A stretch of DNA of 64,000 nt, taken from positions 14,721-78,720 of the forward strand of contig WAPT01000001.1 of assembly GCA_015520605.1 (NCBI GenBank). The letters are read 5' to 3'. Position 1 is the first letter of the stretch, and each line of letters begins with the position of its first letter. This document shows, one piece after another, positions 54,965 through 64,000 of this stretch. The position numbers and the translations under genes were made by a program. The DNA comes from Nanobdellati archaeon (lineage in GTDB: Archaea > EX4484-52 > WAPT01). The notes below the pieces were generated by a model that was not told the origin of the DNA, did not search any database, and saw nothing but the letters and a program-made list of their open reading frames with translations.

Positions 54965-55036
54965 AGCCCCGTGGTGTAGTGGTAAGCATGGCGGGCTTTG
55001 GACCCGCTGACCCAGGTTCGAATCCTGGCGGGGCTA
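54965..55036 (+). tRNA. tRNA-Gln(TTG), CCA not encoded
   Basis: Acceptor AGCCCCG/CGGGGCT (A1-U72, typical of archaeal tRNA-Gln), anticodon arm GCGGG-CTTTGGA-CCCGC. Confidence 0.95.
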
Positions 55037-55072
55037 TTATATTTAAATAATTTAAAAAGGTGAAATTTAGAT

Positions 55073-55204
55073 ATGGGTGATGAGGACGATAAAGACTCGC
55101 ATCAAAAGGGTCTTAAAAGGGACGATTATATTGAGATTGCGGTGGTTCTCTTCCTCACATTGGTTCTGCTTGTGATCGTGGCAGGATACTACAATCTGAC
55201 TTGA
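55073..55204 (+). CDS. 43-aa single-pass membrane microprotein
   Basis: Not in the ORF track. AGGTGA RBS; MGDEDDKDSHQKGLKRDDYIEIAVVLFLTLVLLVIVAGYYNLT. Confidence 0.6.
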   Translation: MGDEDDKDSHQKGLKRDDYIEIAVVLFLTLVLLVIVAGYYNLT

Positions 55205-55254
55205 GGCAACATAAAGCAGAAAGTATTTAATTTAGAGCTTGTATATAGACCACA

Positions 55255-55587
55255 ATGTTGTTTGGGTTTTTATTTATTTTGATAGTGGTGTTGTGGATCG
55301 TGGATGCTGTAGAGACACTTATCGTGGTGCGTAGATTGGGATGCGGGGCTGAACTAAACCCATTCGCGCGATTTTTGCTGAAACACAACAAGGAGGATTT
55401 CATTCTATTTAAGCTAATTGATCTTGTGGTGGTGCTTACAATACTTTACTTCCTGTGCATTGAATCCGAAGAAATGGCGATGAGTCTTCTTGTAAGTTTT
55501 TTTGCAGTTTATTTATTTGTGGTAGTACATAATTTTAAGGTCATAAAAACTTTAAAAAACAAAAAAGATTATACAAAATATAAATAA
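55255..55587 (+). CDS. Small membrane protein (DUF5658-like)
   Basis: D..ET...G.AELNP...FK...VVVHN pattern, 3 TM. Confidence 0.65.
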   Translation: MLFGFLFILIVVLWIVDAVETLIVVRRLGCGAELNPFARFLLKHNKEDFILFKLIDLVVVLTILYFLCIESEEMAMSLLVSFFAVYLFVVVHNFKVIKTLKNKKDYTKYK

Positions 55588-55685
55588 TAAAATATAATTA
55601 AAAAACATGAAAACATATAAAAATGTCCATACACCTAAATATGAAATAAACTGACAGAAAACCATCAGCAAATTGGTGGTGAAAA

Positions 55686-55976
55686 ATGGACGAAGTCTCT
55701 CTCACAAACATTTTACTTCATGAGAAGCCGGTAAAGATGCTACTTGGTATCAGGAACAATGGCGGAGCGTCATACACAACGAAGATAGCCAAGTATGCGG
55801 ATTGTACATACTCTCACACAATGAAAATAATCGATATTTTTGAAAACAAGGGGCTTGTGGAGTCTGAAAAGAAAGGAAGAACCCGCTACATAAAATTGAC
55901 TAAAGTCGGGGAAGAGATCGCGAATCTCCTTGATGAACTCATGAGACTTTTTAAGAAAGTCGATGGAATAAAATAG
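55686..55976 (+). CDS. Winged helix-turn-helix regulator
   Basis: DCTYSHT...GLVESEKKGR...LTKVG. Confidence 0.85.
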   Translation: MDEVSLTNILLHEKPVKMLLGIRNNGGASYTTKIAKYADCTYSHTMKIIDIFENKGLVESEKKGRTRYIKLTKVGEEIANLLDELMRLFKKVDGIK

Positions 55977-55987
55977 TTTAGTGTTTT

Positions 55988-56833
55988 TCAATCCATTTCA
56001 TCAAGAGGGCTTTTTATTTTCATAAGCTCTTTAGCAGATACCTTGGTGTAGATCTGAGTTGTGTTTAGATTGGCATGCCCGAGCAGTTCCTGAATCTTTC
56101 TTATATCGACGCCCGCCTCCAGAAGGTGTGTGGCAAAACTGTGTCTCAGAACGTGTGGGGTTACATTTTTTGTTATTCCCGCCACAGCTGAAAGGTTCGA
56201 TATGATTTTCTGTGCAGCTCTGGGTGTCATCGGTCTGTTTCTGTCTTTTCCGGTAAAAATGTAATCCTCTGAGCTTTTATTTTCCATGGTTATCAAAGTT
56301 TGGAGATCCTCCGCAACTCTTTTTGATATGATAAATATTCTATCCTTTTTTCCCTTACCACCTCTCACAACCCCAACAAAATTGTTAAAATCTATATCCT
56401 TGACTTTTAAGTTGAGACACTCACTTATTCTTAAGCCAGAGGAGTAAAGAAGTTCAACCAGCGCCTTATGTTTTATGTTCTCCGCAGCATCTATCAGCGC
56501 TCTCACTTCCTCTTTGGTGAGAACGGTGGGCAGCTTCTTTTCCTGTTTTGGTGGTTTGAATCTCACAACATCCTCCTTCTTCATAACTTCGGAGAAAAAG
56601 AAGCGCAATGCGGCCATTATGCATGCTATGGTTCTTGTGCTCAACCCCTCCTCGATCATTTTTTGAGATATGTAGTCCTTAACGTCTTCCTCCGTGATCT
56701 TTGCTGGATTCTTTCCAACTTTCTTCAAAAAGTTTTTTACGTGCATCAAGTAGCTTTTGATCGTATTTTCTGTGAAGCCACGTAACCTCAACTCGGATTC
56801 CATTCTTGCGAGATATTTTGATTGAGTTCGCAT
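55988..56833 (-). CDS. xerA: XerA-like site-specific tyrosine recombinase
   Basis: N-terminal SAM-like domain; SGLRISE, GKGKKDR, HVLRHSFATHLLE, LLGHA..TTQIY (R-K-H-R-H-Y). Confidence 0.88.
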   Translation of the reverse strand: MRTQSKYLARMESELRLRGFTENTIKSYLMHVKNFLKKVGKNPAKITEEDVKDYISQKMIEEGLSTRTIACIMAALRFFFSEVMKKEDVVRFKPPKQEKKLPTVLTKEEVRALIDAAENIKHKALVELLYSSGLRISECLNLKVKDIDFNNFVGVVRGGKGKKDRIFIISKRVAEDLQTLITMENKSSEDYIFTGKDRNRPMTPRAAQKIISNLSAVAGITKNVTPHVLRHSFATHLLEAGVDIRKIQELLGHANLNTTQIYTKVSAKELMKIKSPLDEMD

Positions 56834-56835
56834 AA
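56825..56835 (-). promoter_or_regulatory. dif-arm half-site overlapping the xerA start codon
   Basis: Minus-strand TTATGCGAACT, identical to 63782-63792. Confidence 0.6.
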
Positions 56836-56925
56836 ACTATCGTATTGTTTTTTAACAAAATAAAAATGTTCATCAAACATGTTCGAGTAAGGGAAATCTT
56901 TAAATAGGGCTTCGGGTCAAAACAT

Positions 56926-57195
56926 GTGTTTATGAAGCTACCTCCAATAGAAGAGTTGGATTACTTCACGAGAAGGACGCTGGTAAACGACAATGGAGAA
57001 AAAACAGGAATGGTTATAATCTATCGTAGAAAAGGTGAGGAAAAATTCCACTATTTTCTACTTTGTCCTTACTGTGGTAAGGAACAAAAAGGGGAAGCTG
57101 TCTTCAAGAGAAGGCCATACAGAATAGAGTGTAAGGAGTGTGGTAAGAAAATTATTGTCGAACGATTGTACAAAAAGAACAAAAAGAAAAAGTGA
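56926..57195 (+). CDS. Zn-ribbon protein
   Basis: CPYCG...CKECG; divergent from xerA. Confidence 0.7.
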   Translation: MFMKLPPIEELDYFTRRTLVNDNGEKTGMVIIYRRKGEEKFHYFLLCPYCGKEQKGEAVFKRRPYRIECKECGKKIIVERLYKKNKKKK

Positions 57196-57538
57196 TTGAA
57201 GGTTAAAATATTAACGTATGGGGGGATGGGGAAGTCTGCTGCCTATGTTTTACACTCCAACAGTACATACAGGAAAATCAAGGACACCTTTTTTCATGGT
57301 GGCATTCCTTATATAGATTGCTGCGAACATGATAGTTTACATAAAGGCTGGGGAACACGATTAATAAGTTCGTGATGAAATCTTTCATAACCTGCTTCAC
57401 GACTTTTCTTCTGCTTCGGTATGTGATGTTCAAACTTGCTCACGCTCTTGCGGTGGTGGGATCTGGCACAAGAAATGAAAAATTTTAAAGGTTTGGCATA
57501 TTGTTTTATTATATCAGGAAGGAAAGGGCTTCTGTGGT

Positions 57539-57642
57539 GCCCGGGTAGCTCAGTTGGTAGAGCGCGAGTCTTGTAGCGTGAATCTCGTAGCCACGTGCTG
57601 GAGAACTCGTGGTCGTGGGTTCGAGTCCCACCCCGGGCTCCA
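57539..57642 (+). tRNA. tRNA-Thr(TGT) with a 28-nt intron at position 37/38 (57576-57603), CCA encoded
   Basis: Acceptor GCCCGGG/CCCGGGC-T-CCA; CGAGT-CTTGTA[intron]A-ACTCG; T-arm GTGGG-TTCGAGT-CCCAC. Confidence 0.9.
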
Positions 57643-57845
57643 CTTATTTTTCAAAAAATAAAGTCATTTTAAAAACAACAAAATTATTGCATGTTCTGTT
57701 CTCTTTTTTAAAAATTTTCAGAATCTCGTGTAAAACTTCTAACGAATCTCGTTAAAGTCTCAGCACCATTGTTTTCTACAGAATTGATTTATAAATTTAA
57801 CCAAAATCAATATAATATATTAAAGATGATTAAAGTACTCGTTAT

Positions 57846-58217
57846 ATGGTTGAAAACATGATAAGTAATTCGATACTCGGCGGCGTGACTTTGGTTGCTA
57901 TCGCCATTTCGGTCGCACTTATTTATATTTCTCTTGAAGCATACAGAACTTTCAAACTTAAAATATTCAAACAAGCGTTTGCTGTGTTTGTGTTTGCTTC
58001 CTATATTCTGCTGGTTGGAAGCATGATAACCTATTTTGGAGTCGAGGTCTGGTCCGAATACGGGACTTTCAAGGTGTTTATGGTACTTTTTATTATATTT
58101 GGAATCCTTTTTACTACGGGAATAATAAAAATGATAGAAGCTGCACAGATGCTTGGAATAGGAAAAATGCCATCCCGTTCTGAATTGAAAAAATTAAAAA
58201 AGAAAAAATCTAATTGA
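57846..58217 (+). CDS. Multi-pass membrane protein coupled to the KaiC-like ATPase
   Basis: Three hydrophobic segments and a basic tail. Confidence 0.7.
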   Translation: MVENMISNSILGGVTLVAIAISVALIYISLEAYRTFKLKIFKQAFAVFVFASYILLVGSMITYFGVEVWSEYGTFKVFMVLFIIFGILFTTGIIKMIEAAQMLGIGKMPSRSELKKLKKKKSN

Positions 58218-58231
58218 TATGTGTGGTCGAT

Positions 58232-58918
58232 ATGAGCAAGGTTCCCATTGAAAGGGTTCCCTCTGGGATTCCTGGATTGGATGAATTGGTGGAGGGTGGT
58301 TTTCCCAAAAGCAGTGCGATCCTAGTGGCTGGAGGTACAGGTACTGGTAAAACTACTTTTCTGAGTCAGTTCATATGGGAAGGTCTTAAGAGGGGGGAAA
58401 ACTGTCTTTTCGTAACACTTGAAGAAACTCCTGAAGAGATAAAAGGTGATGCTGCTGTTTTTGGGTGGGACTTCGAAACCTACGAGCAAAACGGACAGCT
58501 TCGCATAGAGTACTTTGATCCATTCGAGCTCGGGGATCTGGCGAACAGACTTGCAGACATGATAAAAATGAATAATTATGCGAGGGTGGCGATAGACTCC
58601 ACAGCACTTTTCGGTCTTTACGTTAATGATCTCTACAAAATAAGAAAAATCCTGTATAAACTCATAGAAAGCGTTAAATCCACCGGTGCGACCATTCTTC
58701 TCTCAACCGAAATTCCCGAAAACTCCAACCAACTCAGTAGATTTGGTGTGGAGGAATTCGTTTGCGATGGTGTCGTAGTTCTTTATTACCTTGGGATAGG
58801 GGAGGGTGTGTTCAGGAACATAGAAGTAAGAAAAATGAGAAGAACAAACCACAAAAACGGTACATTCCCCATGGAAATAACCGATGACGGCATTATTGTT
58901 AGATCCACATCCTTGTAG
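58232..58918 (+). CDS. Single-domain KaiC/RAD55-like ATPase
   Basis: SGIPGLDEL..GG, GGTGTGKT, TLEE, AIDS, VRKMR.T.H. Confidence 0.92.
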   Translation: MSKVPIERVPSGIPGLDELVEGGFPKSSAILVAGGTGTGKTTFLSQFIWEGLKRGENCLFVTLEETPEEIKGDAAVFGWDFETYEQNGQLRIEYFDPFELGDLANRLADMIKMNNYARVAIDSTALFGLYVNDLYKIRKILYKLIESVKSTGATILLSTEIPENSNQLSRFGVEEFVCDGVVVLYYLGIGEGVFRNIEVRKMRRTNHKNGTFPMEITDDGIIVRSTSL

Positions 58919-58992
58919 TGCATTCGCATATTCTGAAATTTATTTAAACGTTCCTTACCAGAGCTCCATCATTATCGGCGAGGTGATAAAAG

Positions 58993-60180
58993 ATGGTAAA
59001 AACACTGCTTACCAAGGATGTTATGAACAAAAACTTCGTGATAATGGAGGAAAACGATCCGATTTCAAAAGCGATAGATATTTTCGATGAGAGGGAGCCC
59101 GATGTAATTGTTGTTGTGGATTCAAATGGAAATTATGTTGGAATTCTGTCCGAAAGGTGGATCTACAGGTCAAGGCTTGATCCCACCAAAACCAAAGTAA
59201 AGACACTTGCGAGACATGTTCCCAAAGCCTATAAGGATACTCTTCTGGTGGAGATCGCCAGAAAAATGGTTGAGAATTATGTTCAGGCTGTGCCCGTTTT
59301 CGATAAGGATCAAGATGTGGTTATTGGTATAGTAAGTGATATTGATCTTCTTGTGAAGGTTGTGGAGAAAGAGTTCGGAAATGAGAAAGCCATAGATTAT
59401 GCAACCACACACCTAATAACACTTTTGCCTACAGACAGCATAGGAAAAGCTCTGGCCATGTTCAGGGATAACAATATTTCCCGAGCTCCGGTTATAGACG
59501 AGGGTAAGGTTGTGGGTATAGTCACCATGCATGACATCGTCACAAGGTTCCTTATTCCCAGAGAGAGGGCCAGGAGGGGTGAATTGAAAGGAGAGAAGGT
59601 TCATCCGCTTTCTGCTCCCGTCAGTAAGATAATGAGCTCGCCGGTCATTACGGTAACTCCTAATGCCACTCTAAGAGATATTGTGGAGCTCCTGAAACAG
59701 CACGATATTTCGGGGGTTGTGATCACGGATGAGAAAGGCAAGGCCATCGGAATAATCACCAAGAGGGACTTGCTGGAAGCTCTGATAAAGTATGCAGAAG
59801 TGCCTGAGGAAGAGAATTACATCGTGCAGATGGCAGGAGACTATGATAAGGTCGATGCTTTCGAGATGGAACACATAAGGAAGGATATTGAAAGTCTGAT
59901 GGAACTTGTGAAAAAGATGTTCGATGAAGCAATGCTGACCGTGCACTTCAAGCAGCTGAAAGCAACAAGGCCTGATGCAAGAAGATTCCTGATAAGGTTG
60001 AGGTTGATAACACCAGGCAAGGTTTATGTTGCAAAATACGAGGGTTTTAACGCTATAGATGTGTTTGAAATCGTGAAGGACAAGCTCGAAAGAGAGATTG
60101 TATCCGATAAGGAAAAGGAGGTTGACTTAAGAAAGAAGGAGACTCACGAACACCTAGAGAAGTATGAGTTTTGGATGTGA
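58993..60180 (+). CDS. Four-CBS-domain protein with C-terminal HPF/RaiA-like domain
   Basis: Four CBS repeats (GILS, GIVS, GIVT, GIIT), then a beta-alpha-beta-beta-beta-alpha-patterned C-terminal domain. Confidence 0.8.
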   Translation: MVKTLLTKDVMNKNFVIMEENDPISKAIDIFDEREPDVIVVVDSNGNYVGILSERWIYRSRLDPTKTKVKTLARHVPKAYKDTLLVEIARKMVENYVQAVPVFDKDQDVVIGIVSDIDLLVKVVEKEFGNEKAIDYATTHLITLLPTDSIGKALAMFRDNNISRAPVIDEGKVVGIVTMHDIVTRFLIPRERARRGELKGEKVHPLSAPVSKIMSSPVITVTPNATLRDIVELLKQHDISGVVITDEKGKAIGIITKRDLLEALIKYAEVPEEENYIVQMAGDYDKVDAFEMEHIRKDIESLMELVKKMFDEAMLTVHFKQLKATRPDARRFLIRLRLITPGKVYVAKYEGFNAIDVFEIVKDKLEREIVSDKEKEVDLRKKETHEHLEKYEFWM

Positions 60181-60195
60181 AATTATAATAGGGGG

Positions 60196-60456
60196 GTGAA
60201 CCTAATGGATATGAGAAAGATCAGGCTTGTGGTCGACACAGTACTGATTGCTGTTTTTGTCATCCTTACTCTTAGTGGGTTTGTGCTCTACATAGCTCCA
60301 TCCGGGCCCGGAAGTAAGTACTGGAGCTTTCTGGGAATAAATAAGTATAAGTGGGGTATGTTACATACACAAATAGGATTCGTGTTCATCTTGTTAGTTT
60401 TAATCCACTTCTGGCTAAACAGGAAGCTGTTCATAGGATTGATAAAAATGAAGTGA
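60196..60456 (+). CDS. DUF4405-like small membrane protein with conserved His residues
   Basis: SGFVLY...FLGI...W..LH...IHFWLN. Confidence 0.75.
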   Translation: MNLMDMRKIRLVVDTVLIAVFVILTLSGFVLYIAPSGPGSKYWSFLGINKYKWGMLHTQIGFVFILLVLIHFWLNRKLFIGLIKMK

Positions 60457-60720
60457 GTTGCTAAATTATCGCGATTCAGTATGAGATGCAACACACCCTA
60501 CCTAACCTTTGACATCGACACTACAGGTCTTAAAACTATCACATACACCACATACAAATTTTTTGTATGACATACCACAATCCAGATGGAGAGATATAAA
60601 CAACATAAAGAATGGAAGTGTGCTGCTTTGTTGGATTATATGCGAGAGTGGTAAATTCTTCAACCAATGTAAAGATACTGCTCATTAAGTGCTCAAATTA
60701 AACCATCTGGAGGAATATTT

Positions 60721-60819
60721 TCAAGTTCCTTTAATTTTTTGTTTTATTTTTTGTTTGGTTTTTGGTTCCAAATTTTTCATGAACTTAACTGCCTTTTTGT
60801 GTAAAACCACTTCAAACAT
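60721..60819 (-). pseudogene. Truncated RelE/ParE-family toxin
   Basis: Manual translation MFEVVLHKKAVKFMKNLEPKTKQKIKQKIK then frameshift/stop; alternative frame continues ELENIP. Confidence 0.6.
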
Positions 60820-60835
60820 AAAATAAAAACTAGTT

Positions 60836-60863
60836 TCTGTTGTTAATAAATGTTAACGAAAAT
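60836..60863. other. Degenerate dif-like site (11-6-11)
   Basis: TCTGTTGTTAA-TAAATG-TTAACGAAAAT, TAA-N6-TTA core with partial symmetry. Confidence 0.35.
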
Positions 60864-60887
60864 GCAGGATTGTATATTGCTGCAAAA

Positions 60888-61067
60888 TTAAACTTCATCC
60901 AGTTTTACTGCTTTTTTATCTACTTCTCCTTTCTTTACTATCTCATCCGCTTCTTTCAAAAGAAGATATTCCTCATGTGTCAAAAACGCATCACTAATAA
61001 TTTCCACTAAAAAGTTTAGCCTTTTATCTATCTCATTCACTTTTCTCAAAAGTCCCCCATCAGACAT
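60888..61067 (-). CDS. 59-aa putative antitoxin
   Basis: Not in the ORF track. MSDGGLLRKVNEIDKRLNFLVEIISDAFLTHEEYLLLKEADEIVKKGEVDKKAVKLDEV, upstream of the RelE fragment. Confidence 0.6.
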   Translation of the reverse strand: MSDGGLLRKVNEIDKRLNFLVEIISDAFLTHEEYLLLKEADEIVKKGEVDKKAVKLDEV

Positions 61068-61197
61068 AGTTTCTATTTAGCATGTATCTAATATAAATTT
61101 ATTTCAGAGTCTCAAGCCCTAAATTACTTGTTATCTTTTTCTCTTTCGACAAGGTGATAAAGATGGTTTAAAAAGGTTTGAAGAGGAAGAAAAATTC

Positions 61198-61386
61198 ATG
61201 GCAAAGTTCATGATCCTTTGTGTTCCGCCGCATGCGATAGAATATGCGAACAGCAAAAATGAAGCAATAGAACGAGAAGATGTAACAGTAAGATGGATCG
61301 GCAACGCTGAAAGCAAAGAGGAAGCATGGCAGAAATTTGTGGAGCAGGATGCTGAATTTGTGGAATTTTCGGAAAATAGTGGTTAA
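61198..61386 (+). CDS. Small hypothetical protein
   Basis: 62-aa acidic ORF. Confidence 0.45.
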   Translation: MAKFMILCVPPHAIEYANSKNEAIEREDVTVRWIGNAESKEEAWQKFVEQDAEFVEFSENSG

Positions 61387-61416
61387 GAAACGAGTGTCAT
61401 GCTCCGAGGCGATATT

Positions 61417-61911
61417 ATGAGAACAACATTTGAAAAAGTAGTGGAAATAGTTTTCAGAGAAATAATACCGAAACTAGAAAATAACGACGGATTAGCTGTA
61501 TTTGCTAAGGAGAGAGCAAAATTTGAAGGTTGGCTCAAAGTAGAACTATGTGAGAGTTTATCAAAATACTTTCCATCAGTCACCCCAGAAAAAGATAGGA
61601 TTGACATCACATTTAATAATTGGGCAATAGAGCTTAAAACTATCAATACTAACTACCGATACAAAAACGTTAAGAACAAAATACGTCCAATTACTAAAAA
61701 TGTCAAAGGTATACTCGAAGATATTGAAAAATTGAAATCATCAACCTATACTAATAAGGCAATTTTATTCGTAGTTTTCCCTGTGACTCATAATAATGAA
61801 AATTGGCGAATGCATTTGCAAAGAATATCTAGATTATTGAAAGATCTAAAACACAGGGAATTCAAATTTAAAAACGATATTTCAGGAGTGATTTATTTTG
61901 GATTAATATGA
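61417..61911 (+). CDS. Putative PD-(D/E)xK nuclease
   Basis: FEGWLKVEL...RIDITF...AIELK. Confidence 0.6.
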   Translation: MRTTFEKVVEIVFREIIPKLENNDGLAVFAKERAKFEGWLKVELCESLSKYFPSVTPEKDRIDITFNNWAIELKTINTNYRYKNVKNKIRPITKNVKGILEDIEKLKSSTYTNKAILFVVFPVTHNNENWRMHLQRISRLLKDLKHREFKFKNDISGVIYFGLI

Positions 61912-61940
61912 TGACGCCGTTTCGTTCAACAGTGTGGTGC

Positions 61941-62079
61941 TTCACCTCTTATCCTCCATCACAAAATCACTAACAATAAGTATGTGATTTTCTACATTCG
62001 CCTAGATGCTTTGGCTACGGCTTACATTTCACATACCCGCAGAACATTATTGAGTTTGAGGTTTTGAGGATAGGATGAA
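61941..62079. repeat. Long imperfect inverted repeat, attC-like
   Basis: TATCCTC (61950)/GAGGATA (62066) and GTATGTGA (61980)/TCACATAC (62029); TAAC at 61971. Confidence 0.55.
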
Positions 62080-62093
62080 TAACGCTTCTTGTT

Positions 62094-62276
62094 TTATTCA
62101 AGTAATCTTTTAAGATGTTCTTTGTTCGCTTTTGTAAGTGGGATTATGACATTTAATTCCAAATTCCTATCTGTTTTTTCGATTGCTTCCTTTATGTTTT
62201 CTGTTTCAATAATTTCAGAGAACTTTATAACGTTTTCACTATCCCAAACGCAGTATAAAACACCATATTTCATCAT
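62094..62276 (-). CDS. Small hypothetical protein
   Basis: 60-aa ORF with a TTTATAA-like box upstream. Confidence 0.5.
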   Translation of the reverse strand: MMKYGVLYCVWDSENVIKFSEIIETENIKEAIEKTDRNLELNVIIPLTKANKEHLKRLLE

Positions 62277-62331
62277 GAATAGATCGAGAGAAGGTGATAT
62301 TTATAAGGATTTTTATTAACTTTTCTTAATT

Positions 62332-63300
62332 ATGAATAAACCAAACTATTTTCTAATATCAGTATCAAATAGGGAGAATCTAGAACTATGTAAGAAATTC
62401 GCTTTGGCGGGGCTTACAAATAGTATTAATGGCGCATGGGCATACGTGGAAATAAATGAGGGGGATTTCGTTTCATTTCTTTATGGTGCGCGAGCACACA
62501 ATCTCTATAGGGTCAAGGAAAAAGAAGCAATACGAAACGCTAAAGACCTTCCACCATGGAAACCAATAACATTCAAACCATCAAATAGAACATATTGGTT
62601 TCCTTTAGGTTGTATCTTGAACCAGTAAGGCAGTTTGAAGAGCCCCTCATAAGAAACGAGTTTGCTTATGTAGCTGAAAATTTGCTTTTACGTGGAGGAT
62701 ACAGGAAAACGCATTTTCAAGCGGATCAAACCACACTTCAATAATGTTTCTCAAGTAGGTAATGTCATTAAAAGGAGTGTAGATATTTTAGAAATGCCAA
62801 AATACGAAACCTTTGAACTTAAATTCTGTTTGAGGAAAGAAAATGAAAATCCACCCGAAGTATCTTCATTTAAGGAAGTCATTCTACAAGCGCTAATAAA
62901 GAGATACTTATCAGAAAACCCTAACTTGAAAAATCTCATAGAGATTTGTGAAATAGACGAATTGGATATAAACAACCTTGAAGTCTTAAGTGAAAAAGCG
63001 CTGCCAGAAGGACATGTAGATATATTGATCAAAGAAGCAATACCAATAGGAGTTTCAAGGAAAATTGTGATAGAAGTCAAACTTGGAAAGGCTTCAGAAA
63101 ATGATTTCAAACAACTAAAATATTATGTTTCTGAGTTGGGTAATGAGTGTTTGAGAGGAGTTTTAATTGCGCGGGATTTTGCAAAACGCGCGCTTGAAAA
63201 GTTTGGAAATGACATAACAACTCTGACATACAATCTTGATTGGAAGAAAGATATTATAAGTTTTGAAAAATTGTGCGAATCGTTGAAGCTTCTACAATAA
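62332..63300 (+). pseudogene. EVE/PUA-like domain plus NucS-like PD-(D/E)xK nuclease, double frameshift
   Basis: ORF1 ([15 protein letters not shown]...EGDFVSFLY) and ORF2 (EGHVDILI...IEVK...QLKYY...GVLIA) are bridged by an open shifted frame [43 protein letters not shown]. Confidence 0.7.
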
Positions 63301-63304
63301 ATTT

Positions 63305-63619
63305 TCAAAGTTTCGCAAATCTGGCAAGTAAGACAATCAATGGAATCACAAAATAAAAAATTAATTCAGATATCCCCAGCAATCCAGCTTTCGCCATAAT
63401 ATATACCCCAAACAACCATCCAATTAAATATCCGGTTCCCCAGTAAGGCGTCACATATACCAGAGAGACAAGACCAAGAAACTCGATTAGCTTTAAAGAA
63501 AGAATATAATCATGAATATTATAAGGCACTATTTTAATCTCTGAGAGGATCTGTATCAAAACACCAATTAAAAAGCCTGAAAAGATTTCTGAGATGGCTC
63601 TTTCAAAACCGTGCTCCAT
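63305..63619 (-). CDS. Small multi-pass membrane protein
   Basis: About 104 aa, four hydrophobic segments. Confidence 0.65.
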   Translation of the reverse strand: MEHGFERAISEIFSGFLIGVLIQILSEIKIVPYNIHDYILSLKLIEFLGLVSLVYVTPYWGTGYLIGWLFGVYIMAKAGLLGISELIFYFVIPLIVLLARFAKL

Positions 63620-63764
63620 TCTGGGCATATATTGTTATTTTTGGGAAAATTTTAATAATATTCTGTCAATTCTTCCCACTTTCATCTTATATTTTTGGGA
63701 AAATATTTTCCAGCTTATATTTCTCAAAATCTTCTTTTCTCTCCACTTTCCATCCGTCCAGTTT

Positions 63765-63792
63765 TGTTCGCATAACGAATATTATGCGAACT
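63765..63792. other. Palindromic dif-like Xer recombination site
   Basis: TGTTCGCATAA-CGAATA-TTATGCGAACT: 11-6-11 geometry, 10-bp perfect inverted arms, CGCATAA-N6-TTATG core as in bacterial dif. Confidence 0.75.
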
Positions 63793-64000
63793 TGTTTTGA
63801 GTGTTGCGTTTTTTGTTCTAATATATTGATCTTGTACAAGTGCTTTTTTATAGAAAATAGTTGGATCAAAAGAACGTGTAGAAAAAGTTCTCAGACATAT
63901 ACTCTAAAGAGTCATATGCCTCATGTTGGGTAAAAGATTAATGTGAGAGTTTTTCGGAACATTGTGGAAAATAAATGGGAAATTTGTTCTAATTATAAGC

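Follow-up and report, generated by a model that had tools for sequence, protein, structure and literature searches.

A candidate XerA half-site on the start codon of xerA in a Nanobdellati archaeon and its possible role in autoregulation

Why does the start codon of xerA, a tyrosine recombinase gene, lie inside an exact copy of one arm of the site that is linked to its own product? The gene is part of a stretch of 64,000 nucleotides from an uncultured Nanobdellati archaeon (GTDB lineage Archaea; EX4484-52; WAPT01; assembly GCA_015520605.1, contig WAPT01000001.1, positions 14,721 to 78,720 of the forward strand), referred to here as the window. A preliminary description of the window had matched the start of xerA to the right arm of a dif-like palindrome and proposed either that XerA binds its own start region for autorepression or that the gene start derives from a past recombination at dif. 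These proposals were examined in the genome of the window (G000; 863,228 bases in 27 contigs, 90.7% complete), in its sister species G001, which belongs to the same family (f1), and in a comparison set of 42 species genomes, the same 42 at the phylum, class and order scopes. According to the run records, the sequencing runs that contain this DNA are hydrothermal-vent metagenomes. The features on which the question turns are the following, with positions counted along the window.

56825..56835, minus strand: candidate orphan dif arm (putative XerA half-site), TTATGCGAACT, from -2 to +9 relative to the A of the xerA ATG
55988..56833, minus strand: xerA, encoding a tyrosine recombinase of 281 amino acids, with its start codon inside the arm
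56859..56866, minus strand: TATA-like box of xerA, TTTTTATT, at -33 to -26 from the ATG
63765..63792, no strand assigned: dif candidate, tGTTCGCATAA-cgaata-TTATGCGAACt, with an 11-6-11 layout, 208 bp from the contig end

The reading that we favour, with a probability of roughly one half, is that the arm is a selected XerA half-site that gives negative autoregulation of xerA and that probably stems from an older linkage between dif and xerA.

The minus strand around the start of xerA reads ...gatagtTTATGCGAACTcaat..., and the wider reading through promoter and start is ...aacaTTTTTATTttgttaaaaaacaatacgatagtTTATGCGAACTcaatcaaaa.... The arm is made up of TT (56835-56834), the ATG itself (56833-56831) and CGAACT (56830-56825). 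It is identical to the right arm of dif (63782-63792) at 11 of 11 positions and differs from the left arm at the outermost base alone, and its identity to dif breaks off exactly at both arm borders. At the place of a partner arm, 6 nt upstream, the candidate 11 nucleotides (aaaaacaatac) agree with the arm in about 4 of 11 bases, no more than chance would give. Direct reading of the sequence confirmed the preliminary description on both counts: a TT-ATG-CGAACT arm is present on the xerA start, and it has no partner arm. Only the xerA copies open a gene with the ATG of the arm (281 amino acids in G000, 279 in G001); in the other 44 listed arm copies of G000, G001, G003, G015 and G019 the ATG starts no gene. 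A composite pattern of the arm, 15-45 nt and a motif coding for ELKLRG matched G000 and G001 alone among the 42 genomes.

The palindrome at 63765-63792 is a good dif candidate. It is a 28-bp imperfect inverted repeat present as a single copy in G000, it has the TAA-N6-TTA core that serves as a criterion for dif in the methods of PMC11840125, and its 11-6-11 layout with an ATAA/TTAT core is that of published archaeal dif sites, for example the sequence of Thermococcus kodakarensis (PMC11840125). A degenerate dif pattern, KCGYATAA-N6-TTATRCGM, was searched across the 42 genomes alongside a reversed control. Exactly one perfect match was found in each of 14 genomes and no perfect match in the remaining 28, against 0 matches in 42 for the control; the arms are conserved and the 6-bp spacer differs in nearly every genome. 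The distance from the xerA start to dif is 6.9 kb in G000, 8.85 kb in G001 and about 9.7 kb in G003, with both on the same contig.

The product of xerA has the domains and residues of a XerA-type chromosomal recombinase. Pfam matches were obtained to the catalytic Phage_integrase domain (PF00589, 1.4e-50) and to a SAM-like N-terminal domain (PF13495, 4e-17), and the PF00589 match is the single one in the whole 863-kb assembly. The closest solved structure is XerA of Pyrococcus abyssi (4a8e, 5.4e-56); in the alignment GLR(135), HxLRH, GH and QIY(261) are kept, including the equivalents of R135 and Y261, which are catalytic in the P. abyssi enzyme (PMC3646895). Orthologues were found in 35 of the 41 genomes searched, G000 counted, and with its sole copy, its widespread orthologues and a neighbourhood syntenic with that of G001, xerA has the profile of a housekeeping rather than a mobile gene. 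The nearest named homologues belong to Candidatus Aenigmatarchaeota (54-58% identity), and one relative at 49% identity carries the label Woesearchaeota. The sole PF00589 gene, the linkage of dif to xerA in relatives and the nearest structure together support the link between the 63765 site and this enzyme that the preliminary description had drawn. A single XerA and a single-copy 28-bp 11-6-11 site with an ATAA/TTAT inner core are likewise found in P. abyssi and T. kodakarensis (PMC2958812, PMC3646895, PMC11840125). In G002, a genome of the same genus with a completeness of 94%, no xerA orthologue was found (the best match is 30% identical and contains an internal TAG), the dif patterns gave no match, and the CBS-domain gene that lies between xerA and dif in the window lacks an orthologue. 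For these reasons G002 was discarded as a comparator.

The arm is kept in the sister species. The xerA start of G001 reads cattATGCGAACTtcg, which contains the identical 11-mer; XerA is 73% identical between the two species, and the gene order from xerA to dif is common to both. In a 266-column alignment of the two 5' regions, read by eye, the other identical runs reach at most about 10 columns, and the flanks of the arm have diverged, including a 21-nt indel. The 4-fold degenerate sites of xerA are saturated, with 26 of 79 identical, and the same codon is used for 85 of the 204 residues that are identical in the two proteins. The genes of both species nevertheless use CGA-ACT in the arm, the rarest Arg codon (3.5%) followed by the rarest Thr codon (17.8%), as counted in 414 long open reading frames (ORFs) of G000. 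Because the arm has been kept with this rare codon pair despite saturated synonymous sites, selection would act on the DNA word rather than on the peptide, which argues for a DNA-level constraint on the arm. Contigs of related strains (about 93% identity), which come from other runs, also span the xerA 5' region; they have one extra base in the T-run before the ATG, and among the differences listed the TT of the 11-mer is left intact.

At the protein level, homologues were taken from a large protein collection and ranked by their likeness to XerA of G000; for those with M-R-T, G000 and G001 aside, the comparison covered the protein sequence. M-R-T occupies this position in 7 of the 10 closest (P0001-P0006 and P0008; 63-96% identity), and the residues and indels that come after it vary (QSKYLAR, SKWIEML, NEWVSKL, SPNEWLEKL, NEWVDKL, SDEEWLNKM). 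Two of the M-R-T homologues are annotated with an upstream extension in which Ile precedes the Met, compatible with ..TT-ATG. M-R-T is missing from P0007, P0009 and P0010 (60-64% identity) and from five more distant homologues (P0011, P0012, P0013, P0016 and P0020). To judge from these comparisons, the N-terminus of the f1 clade looks like 'MRT' grafted before the usual N-terminus. An alternative start at Met11 (ATG at 56803) was rejected: P0005 has no other Met before the domain, and the N-terminal lengths of the orthologues agree with Met1. Another rejected candidate was a second site, TTACTCGAAC, which is arm-like at 8 of 10 positions and lies upstream of the G000 TATA box; the chance expectation for it is about 0.08 by our own arithmetic, and it falls within the 21-nt indel that is absent from G001. 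A 1077-nt contig of another organism (run X1) matches 56831-56867 alone, with 5 differences in 37 bases.

The geometry of the promoter places the arm at the predicted start of transcription. TATA-like hexamers were counted relative to the ATG in the 585 genes of G000 whose starts are well defined; they peak at -32 to -27, where two 3-nt bins hold 90 + 51 = 141 hits against about 10 per bin elsewhere. Given this sharp peak, many genes of G000 are probably leaderless. A Shine-Dalgarno-like word is found within -18 to -4 in 209 of these 585 genes. At xerA, 25 nt separate the TATA-like box from the ATG in G000 and 23 nt in G001, where the box is kept. Because this is the genome-wide leaderless spacing, the xerA transcript is probably leaderless as well, and the arm would cover its predicted transcription start, at about -2 to +9, so that a recombinase site would lie over the promoter of the recombinase's own gene. 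Archaeal repressors commonly block RNA polymerase when bound at such a start position.

Either dif or one of its arms also stands near xerA in other lineages. The arrangements in the 14 genomes with a perfect dif, with family labels in brackets, are these.

Full dif 60-105 nt upstream of a xerA gene: 8 of 14, namely G017, G012 and G006 (f5) and G026, G016, G004, G024 and G028 (f3)
Orphan arm on the ATG: 2 of 14, namely G000 and G001 (f1)
Orphan arm between the TATA box and the ATG: 1 of 14, namely G008 (f7)
No arm within 150 nt of the xerA start: 3 of 14, namely G003, G015 and G019 (f2, which also holds G010)

A complete site adjoining the gene is therefore a feature of f3 and f5 and is not seen in G000 or G001. 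In the three f5 genomes 3 nt separate the end of the right arm from the TATA box, and 21 nt lie between the box and the ATG. In G008, whose dif lies on another contig, CTTCGCATAA stands between the xerA TATA box and the ATG; the 9-mer TTATGCGAA has 7 copies in this genome, which are the two dif arms, the xerA copy and four others. Outside the 14 genomes, TTATACGAACT abuts the xerA TATA box in G005 (f4; 78% complete, no perfect dif found), and a dif with one mismatch abuts it in G021. In the f2 genomes G003, G015 and G019, xerA lies closely behind another gene. The preliminary description had asked whether xerA orthologues also carry their cognate arm at the start; this holds on the ATG in G001 and, as a location in the promoter, in G008 and G005, but not in G003, G015 and G019. 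As observations in their own right, the xerA genes of f6 have one upstream word in common, TATCGGCA, placed some 35 nt ahead of the TATA box, and in some of them odd palindromes such as TTATACGGAAT-tt-ATTCCGTATAA follow closely after the gene. In f5, second xer-like genes (G006:C1:6330-6700 and G021:C50:5150-5500) have an orphan arm 85-100 nt upstream and a junction word in common, ggaaattttatTGCGTATAA; they look like elements integrated at dif-like sites.

From the identity of the sequence and its conservation, together with the unusual codons, the layout of the promoter and the parallels among relatives, we infer XerA binding, a transcription start, a direction of regulation and an evolutionary route. 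The 11 bases would be a half-site for XerA, that is, a dif arm minus its partner, placed over the starts of both transcription and translation. A XerA monomer on the arm would occupy the place where RNA polymerase opens the DNA and starts, and as free XerA rises, transcription of xerA would fall, which would amount to negative autoregulation by start-site occlusion. With one arm alone, strand exchange would not be expected. Most likely dif itself once lay in the promoter of xerA, where sister families still have it; in this genus, where dif is now 7-9 kb off, one arm would have been retained at the gene start and would now supply the ATG. The autorepression suggested by the preliminary description thus gains partial support from the apparent DNA-level constraint, the predicted transcription start and the arms in the xerA promoters of sister lineages. 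Its other suggestion, a gene start derived from recombination at dif, is plausible in view of the dif sites 60-105 nt upstream of xerA in 8 of 14 genomes and of the apparent 'MRT' graft, but no direct trace of an insertion was found in the 7-9 kb interval, which is syntenic between G000 and G001 and holds ordinary genes. An older linkage of dif and xerA is suggested because their adjacency is spread among the families, because the spacer side of the arm faces dif and because DNA near dif varies among strains. Origin from such a linkage and present function are not exclusive.

Several points weigh against autoregulation through the arm. The DNA-level conservation and the codon argument are based on two sequences, those of G000 and G001; the further close relatives with DNA are one locus at 49% identity in genome contigs and four at 48% or less in metagenome contigs. 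The arm word is not unique, since G000 holds 6 copies of it as an 11-mer and 10 as a 10-mer, and the xerA copy might belong to this family of orphan arms with some other role. The f2 genomes, which are the richest in orphan arms, have no arm near the start of xerA (3 of 14, within 150 nt), and autoregulation through an arm is for this reason not general. The position of the arm also differs by family, being before the TATA box, between TATA box and ATG or on the ATG, and such differing positions need not share one effect. Finally, tyrosine recombinases usually have a lower affinity for one half-site than for a complete site.

How far the copy at xerA stands out depends on how the arm word is counted. 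In shuffles of the window, where 3 matches with at most one mismatch were observed, 9 of 100 shuffles reach 3, and two of the three observed matches are the palindrome's own arms; because 9 of 100 shuffles do as well, the match is unremarkable by count within the window. Over the whole assembly of 863,228 bases the 11-mer has 6 copies against 0.31-0.62 expected under Markov orders 0-7, and 0.6% of observed 11-mers have at least 6 copies. The four further copies lie within long ORFs in various frames. The preliminary description would have given up its reading if the 11-mer were frequent genome-wide; with six copies this is partly so, but the extra copies form a non-random family of orphan arms and are not noise. 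That a copy falls within 15 nt of the start of the sole recombinase gene has an expectation of about 1.4e-4, in post hoc arithmetic of our own that takes 4 other copies per 1.73 million strand positions. The xerA copy is non-random through its place, and its conservation adds to this.

The orphan-arm family is seen in several genomes. The 10-mer TTATGCGAAC occurs 10 times in G000, where its 25,200 permutations average 1.25, which puts it in the top 0.2%, and 11, 11, 6 and 7 times in G001, G003, G015 and G019 against 2, 0, 2 and 0 for the reversed control; in G008 there is 1 copy, as for the control. In the f2 genomes G003, G010, G019 and G015 the 9-mer TTATGCGAA has 27, 34, 28 and 25 copies against 11, 5, 9 and 7 for the control, while in f3 and f5, where dif adjoins xerA, arm 9-mers are not or only slightly enriched. 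Some orphan copies occupy orthologous places in the two f1 species: G000:C23:26405 corresponds to G001:C7:33685 and 33742, and G000:C19:37643 to G001:C4:65318. By this synteny contig C23 of G000 probably continues C15, the dif contig, beyond dif. The copy at C23:26405 lies about 4.7 kb beyond dif, in an otherwise poorly conserved stretch, where G001 has two copies 57 nt apart.

The orphan arms have a polarity that is clearest in f2. Contig C1 of G003 (126.6 kb, dif at 82896) carries 18 of the 27 TTATGCGAA copies of that genome; to the left of dif 9 of 9 copies are on the plus strand and to the right 7 of 7 on the minus strand, so that 16 of 16 copies outside dif itself are directed at dif. Polarity holds for 19 of 20 copies when one mismatch is accepted, and the exact 10-mer count on this contig, 9, is the maximum over all permutations (mean 0.16). 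Gene orientation does not explain the polarity, because 8 of the 16 copies are sense, 5 antisense and 3 intergenic, with gene-strand shares of about 60:40. The same sense toward dif is seen on the dif contigs G019:C93 (4 of 4), G015:C96 (2 of 2) and G010:C26 (1 of 1), and 18 of 18 other f2 contigs with at least 2 copies are uniform in orientation, some close pairs among them possibly being non-independent. In f1 the polarity is weaker: orientation is uniform in G000 within C13 (5 copies), C17 (2) and C19 (2), and mixed in G001 on C2, C4 and C5. The flip of arm polarity at dif in G003 is suggestive of a terminus location of dif. GC and AT skew on the dif contigs G000:C15, G001:C7 and G003:C1 showed no clear switch and follows the gene strand. 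Among the exact-word orphans on the dif contigs of G000 and G001, the xerA copy is alone in pointing away from dif. Because it runs against the polarity and is the sole copy used as a start codon, we read it as having a role separate from that of the family. In f2, lone arms also flank dif within 200-600 bp on both sides, pointing inward (G003:C1:82680 and 83246; G019:C93:1027). In G015 (C96:1-1220) dif lies between two convergent genes of no known family; one lone arm precedes the ATG of the first gene by about 50 nt, and the other stands at codons 3-6 of the second.

Three other explanations were weighed against a selected half-site. One holds that the xerA copy belongs to the orphan-arm family, which would organise the terminus as polar guides, through XDS-like SMC unloading or in a fork-trap-like manner, and that its start position is incidental. 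The excess of TTATGCGAAC in G000, G001, G003, G015 and G019, the two orphan copies whose positions are conserved between G000 and G001, and the concentration of 9-mers on contig C1 of G003, where every non-dif copy points toward dif, all speak for a family of this kind, and the XDS, dif-like XerD sites that unload SMC, offer a precedent (PMC11840125). Yet on the dif contigs of the two f1 species the xerA copy is the one exact-word orphan that points away from dif, and no other copy provides a start codon. The 78 kb of G000 that lie on the xerA side of dif contain no further exact copy, and the chance that any of about 13 non-dif 9-mer copies would fall within 15 nt of the xerA start is about 4.5e-4 by our own arithmetic. 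In addition, orientation is mixed in G001 outside the dif contig, and no SMC hinge domain was found in G000, at 90.7% completeness, while ScpA and an SMC_N-type ATPase are present. On balance we find this explanation unlikely for the xerA copy.

The second explanation takes the arm as a functionless scar: an ancestral dif at xerA would have been split by a Xer-mediated insertion or rearrangement of 7-9 kb, and a full dif rebuilt at the far junction. It accords with the 8 of 14 genomes in which dif immediately precedes xerA, with the spacer side of the orphan arm facing dif as an insertion junction would, with the variation of the dif-proximal interval among strains and species, and with the f5 xer paralogues, whose upstream orphan arms and common junction word resemble those of integrated elements; an insertion at dif that parts xerS from its promoter has been discussed by Le Bourgeois et al. 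(PMC1914069). A scar should have decayed, however: with 26 of 79 synonymous sites identical, 11 of 11 bases were kept, among them two rare codons and two non-coding bases, and M-R-T persists in homologues down to 63% identity. The interval holds ordinary genes with no mobile-element genes found by Pfam, and no flank homology that would betray an older adjacency was found. An origin as a scar is itself compatible with autoregulation through the arm, so that only the lack of function is at stake, and this we consider quite improbable. Still less credible is coincidence combined with protein-level selection for an M-R-T N-terminus, the match to dif being accidental. Such selection would account for M-R-T in 7 of the 10 closest homologues, the 11-mer does arise elsewhere in the genome by other routes, and the window shuffles were unimpressive (9 of 100 reach 3 matches). 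But selection on the protein does not explain why both species keep the rarest codons and the two T bases before the ATG, all other families have a variable N-terminus that lacks MRT, and in other lineages arms stand at xerA promoters where no coding constraint applies.

Regulation of a recombinase gene through the recombinase's own site is known; unusual here is the putative orphan half-site that doubles as a start codon. Among reports outside subscription journals, none was found of an orphan dif arm on a xer start codon or of polar dif-arm words. Isolated half-sites are bound and cleaved by P. abyssi XerA (PMC3646895). In the Thermococcales the position of xerA relative to dif is variable, and, unlike here, no orphan arm at a gene start is reported in the sections of PMC2958812, PMC3646895 and PMC11840125 covered; the terms 'promoter' and 'autoregulat' have 0 occurrences in PMC2958812. 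A further likeness to P. abyssi and T. kodakarensis is that no FtsK domain in G000 exceeds the Pfam cut-off. The xerS-difSL system of streptococci and lactococci resembles the present case in having one recombinase and a site genetically tied to its gene (PMC1914069, PMC5357621), and Le Bourgeois et al. raised, as a speculation, that XerS might regulate its own gene from difSL or that having the site there might protect dif from insertions (PMC1914069). There, however, the complete site adjoins the gene, whereas here the complete site is 6.9 kb off and a half-site lies on the start codon; the full-site arrangement of xerS-difSL exists in the sister families f3 and f5. IntS of KplE1 is another recombinase with sites overlapping the promoter of its own gene: attL overlaps the integrase promoter, an arrangement described as widespread, and the negative autoregulation of IntS that results was demonstrated experimentally (PMC2951348). 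IntS is a prophage integrase with arm-type sites, a directionality factor and bacterial sigma-70 promoters, in contrast to a chromosomal dimer resolvase with a core-type half-site, an archaeal TATA-type and probably leaderless promoter, and a proposed regulation. In haloarchaea a dif-like element lies upstream of the xerA operon, as in Haloferax volcanii and Halobacterium salinarum (PMC11840125); it differs from the arm described here in being a full inverted repeat before the operon, with neither a half-site on the start codon nor a regulatory claim in the covered parts of that source.

Two further systems bear on the orphan arms. The XDS of Bacillus subtilis are XerD sites at which SMC is unloaded in the terminus region (Karaboja et al. 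2021, as cited in PMC11840125 and PMC10945525). They are dif-like sites around the terminus at which the recombinase binds but does not recombine, and the orphan arms may be of this kind; according to the two citing sources, the XDS act on SMC and not on xerD transcription, whereas the site described here is on the start of the recombinase's own gene. As to XDS-type features, orphan arms are enriched and clustered on the dif contig in G003; in G000, besides the missing SMC hinge, ScpA is just over the cut-off and the SMC_N-type ATPase has 765 amino acids. The KOPS of bacteria and the ASPS of archaea are, like the f2 orphan arms, over-represented words that flip at dif (PMC2958812). FtsK reads KOPS, which have no relation to dif arms, and the ASPS are 4-mers (PMC2958812), while the polar word here is the dif arm itself, a putative XerA-binding word, and the xerA-start copy breaks the polarity. 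No FtsK_SpoIIIE match in G000 reached the Pfam cut-off (best 18.4 bits against 24); with a flip in f2, FtsK under the cut-off in G000 and mixed polarity in G001, the pattern is not that of KOPS/FtsK-type guidance. It is conceivable, though we hold it rather unlikely, that in this phylum the dif arm is a multi-purpose word read by XerA. As an inverted pair it would be dif; as lone copies, tens of them along both chromosome arms and pointing to dif, it would serve guidance, a fork trap or condensin unloading in place of FtsK and KOPS; and as the copy set against the polarity on the xerA start it would make XerA synthesis respond to the occupancy of this pool of sites.

The neighbours of xerA and the DNA between the arm and dif comprise the following features.

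55686..55976, plus strand: winged-helix gene of 96 amino acids, convergent with xerA (Pfam winged-helix matches)
56932..57195, plus strand: divergent small gene, which shares a 98-bp intergenic region with xerA
56836..63764, no strand assigned: interval between arm and dif, 6.9 kb, with ordinary genes and small ORFs
57539-57639, plus strand: tRNA with an intron, 101 nt (Rfam, 62.1 bits)
58214-58918: KaiC-like ATPase (Pfam)
58993-60180: CBS-domain gene (Pfam)

Of the winged-helix matches for the gene at 55686..55976, HTH_45 alone reaches the cut-off. This gene adjoins xerA also in G001, G005, G008 and G026, and it may be a partner or a regulator. The divergent gene is 75% identical in G001, where the shared promoter block is kept in the alignment; it has the same spacing as xerA (TATA box at 56899-56906, then 25 nt, then the ATG at 56932), and its zinc-ribbon-like Pfam matches are weak and all under the cut-off. 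The interval also holds a DUF4405 gene and a weak NucS-like gene by Pfam. ARAGORN found no tRNA in 55000-64000, where Rfam found the one at 57539-57639; its distance from the xerA start is about 700 nt, and the strain-variable segment 57153-57478 is next to it.

The gene order of the interval is common to G000 and G001 except for about 60456-62089. The contigs of related strains join across 60466->63673 and 61193->63338 and have 204 other letters in place of 57153-57478. From these joins and from the difference to G001, the DNA adjoining dif is, as far as these sequences go, a hot spot of gene turnover. Among the joins listed, none connects the orphan arm with dif in related strains. A comparison with the families in which dif adjoins xerA gave no homology to the far side of dif, the winged-helix gene alone being common.

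Archaeal Xer recombination works without FtsK, and on the control of its activity and dosage the covered parts of the review and papers name no mechanism that regulates xerA. A conserved half-site on the gene's own start offers a concrete hypothesis of feedback by start-site occlusion. Across a DPANN phylum, dif or one of its arms is repeatedly linked with the promoter of xerA, in no fewer than three geometries, which suggests selection for coupling expression of the enzyme to its site. The polar arm word of f2, which flips at dif, may matter more, as a handle on how archaea mark the terminus and give chromosome processing its direction without FtsK.

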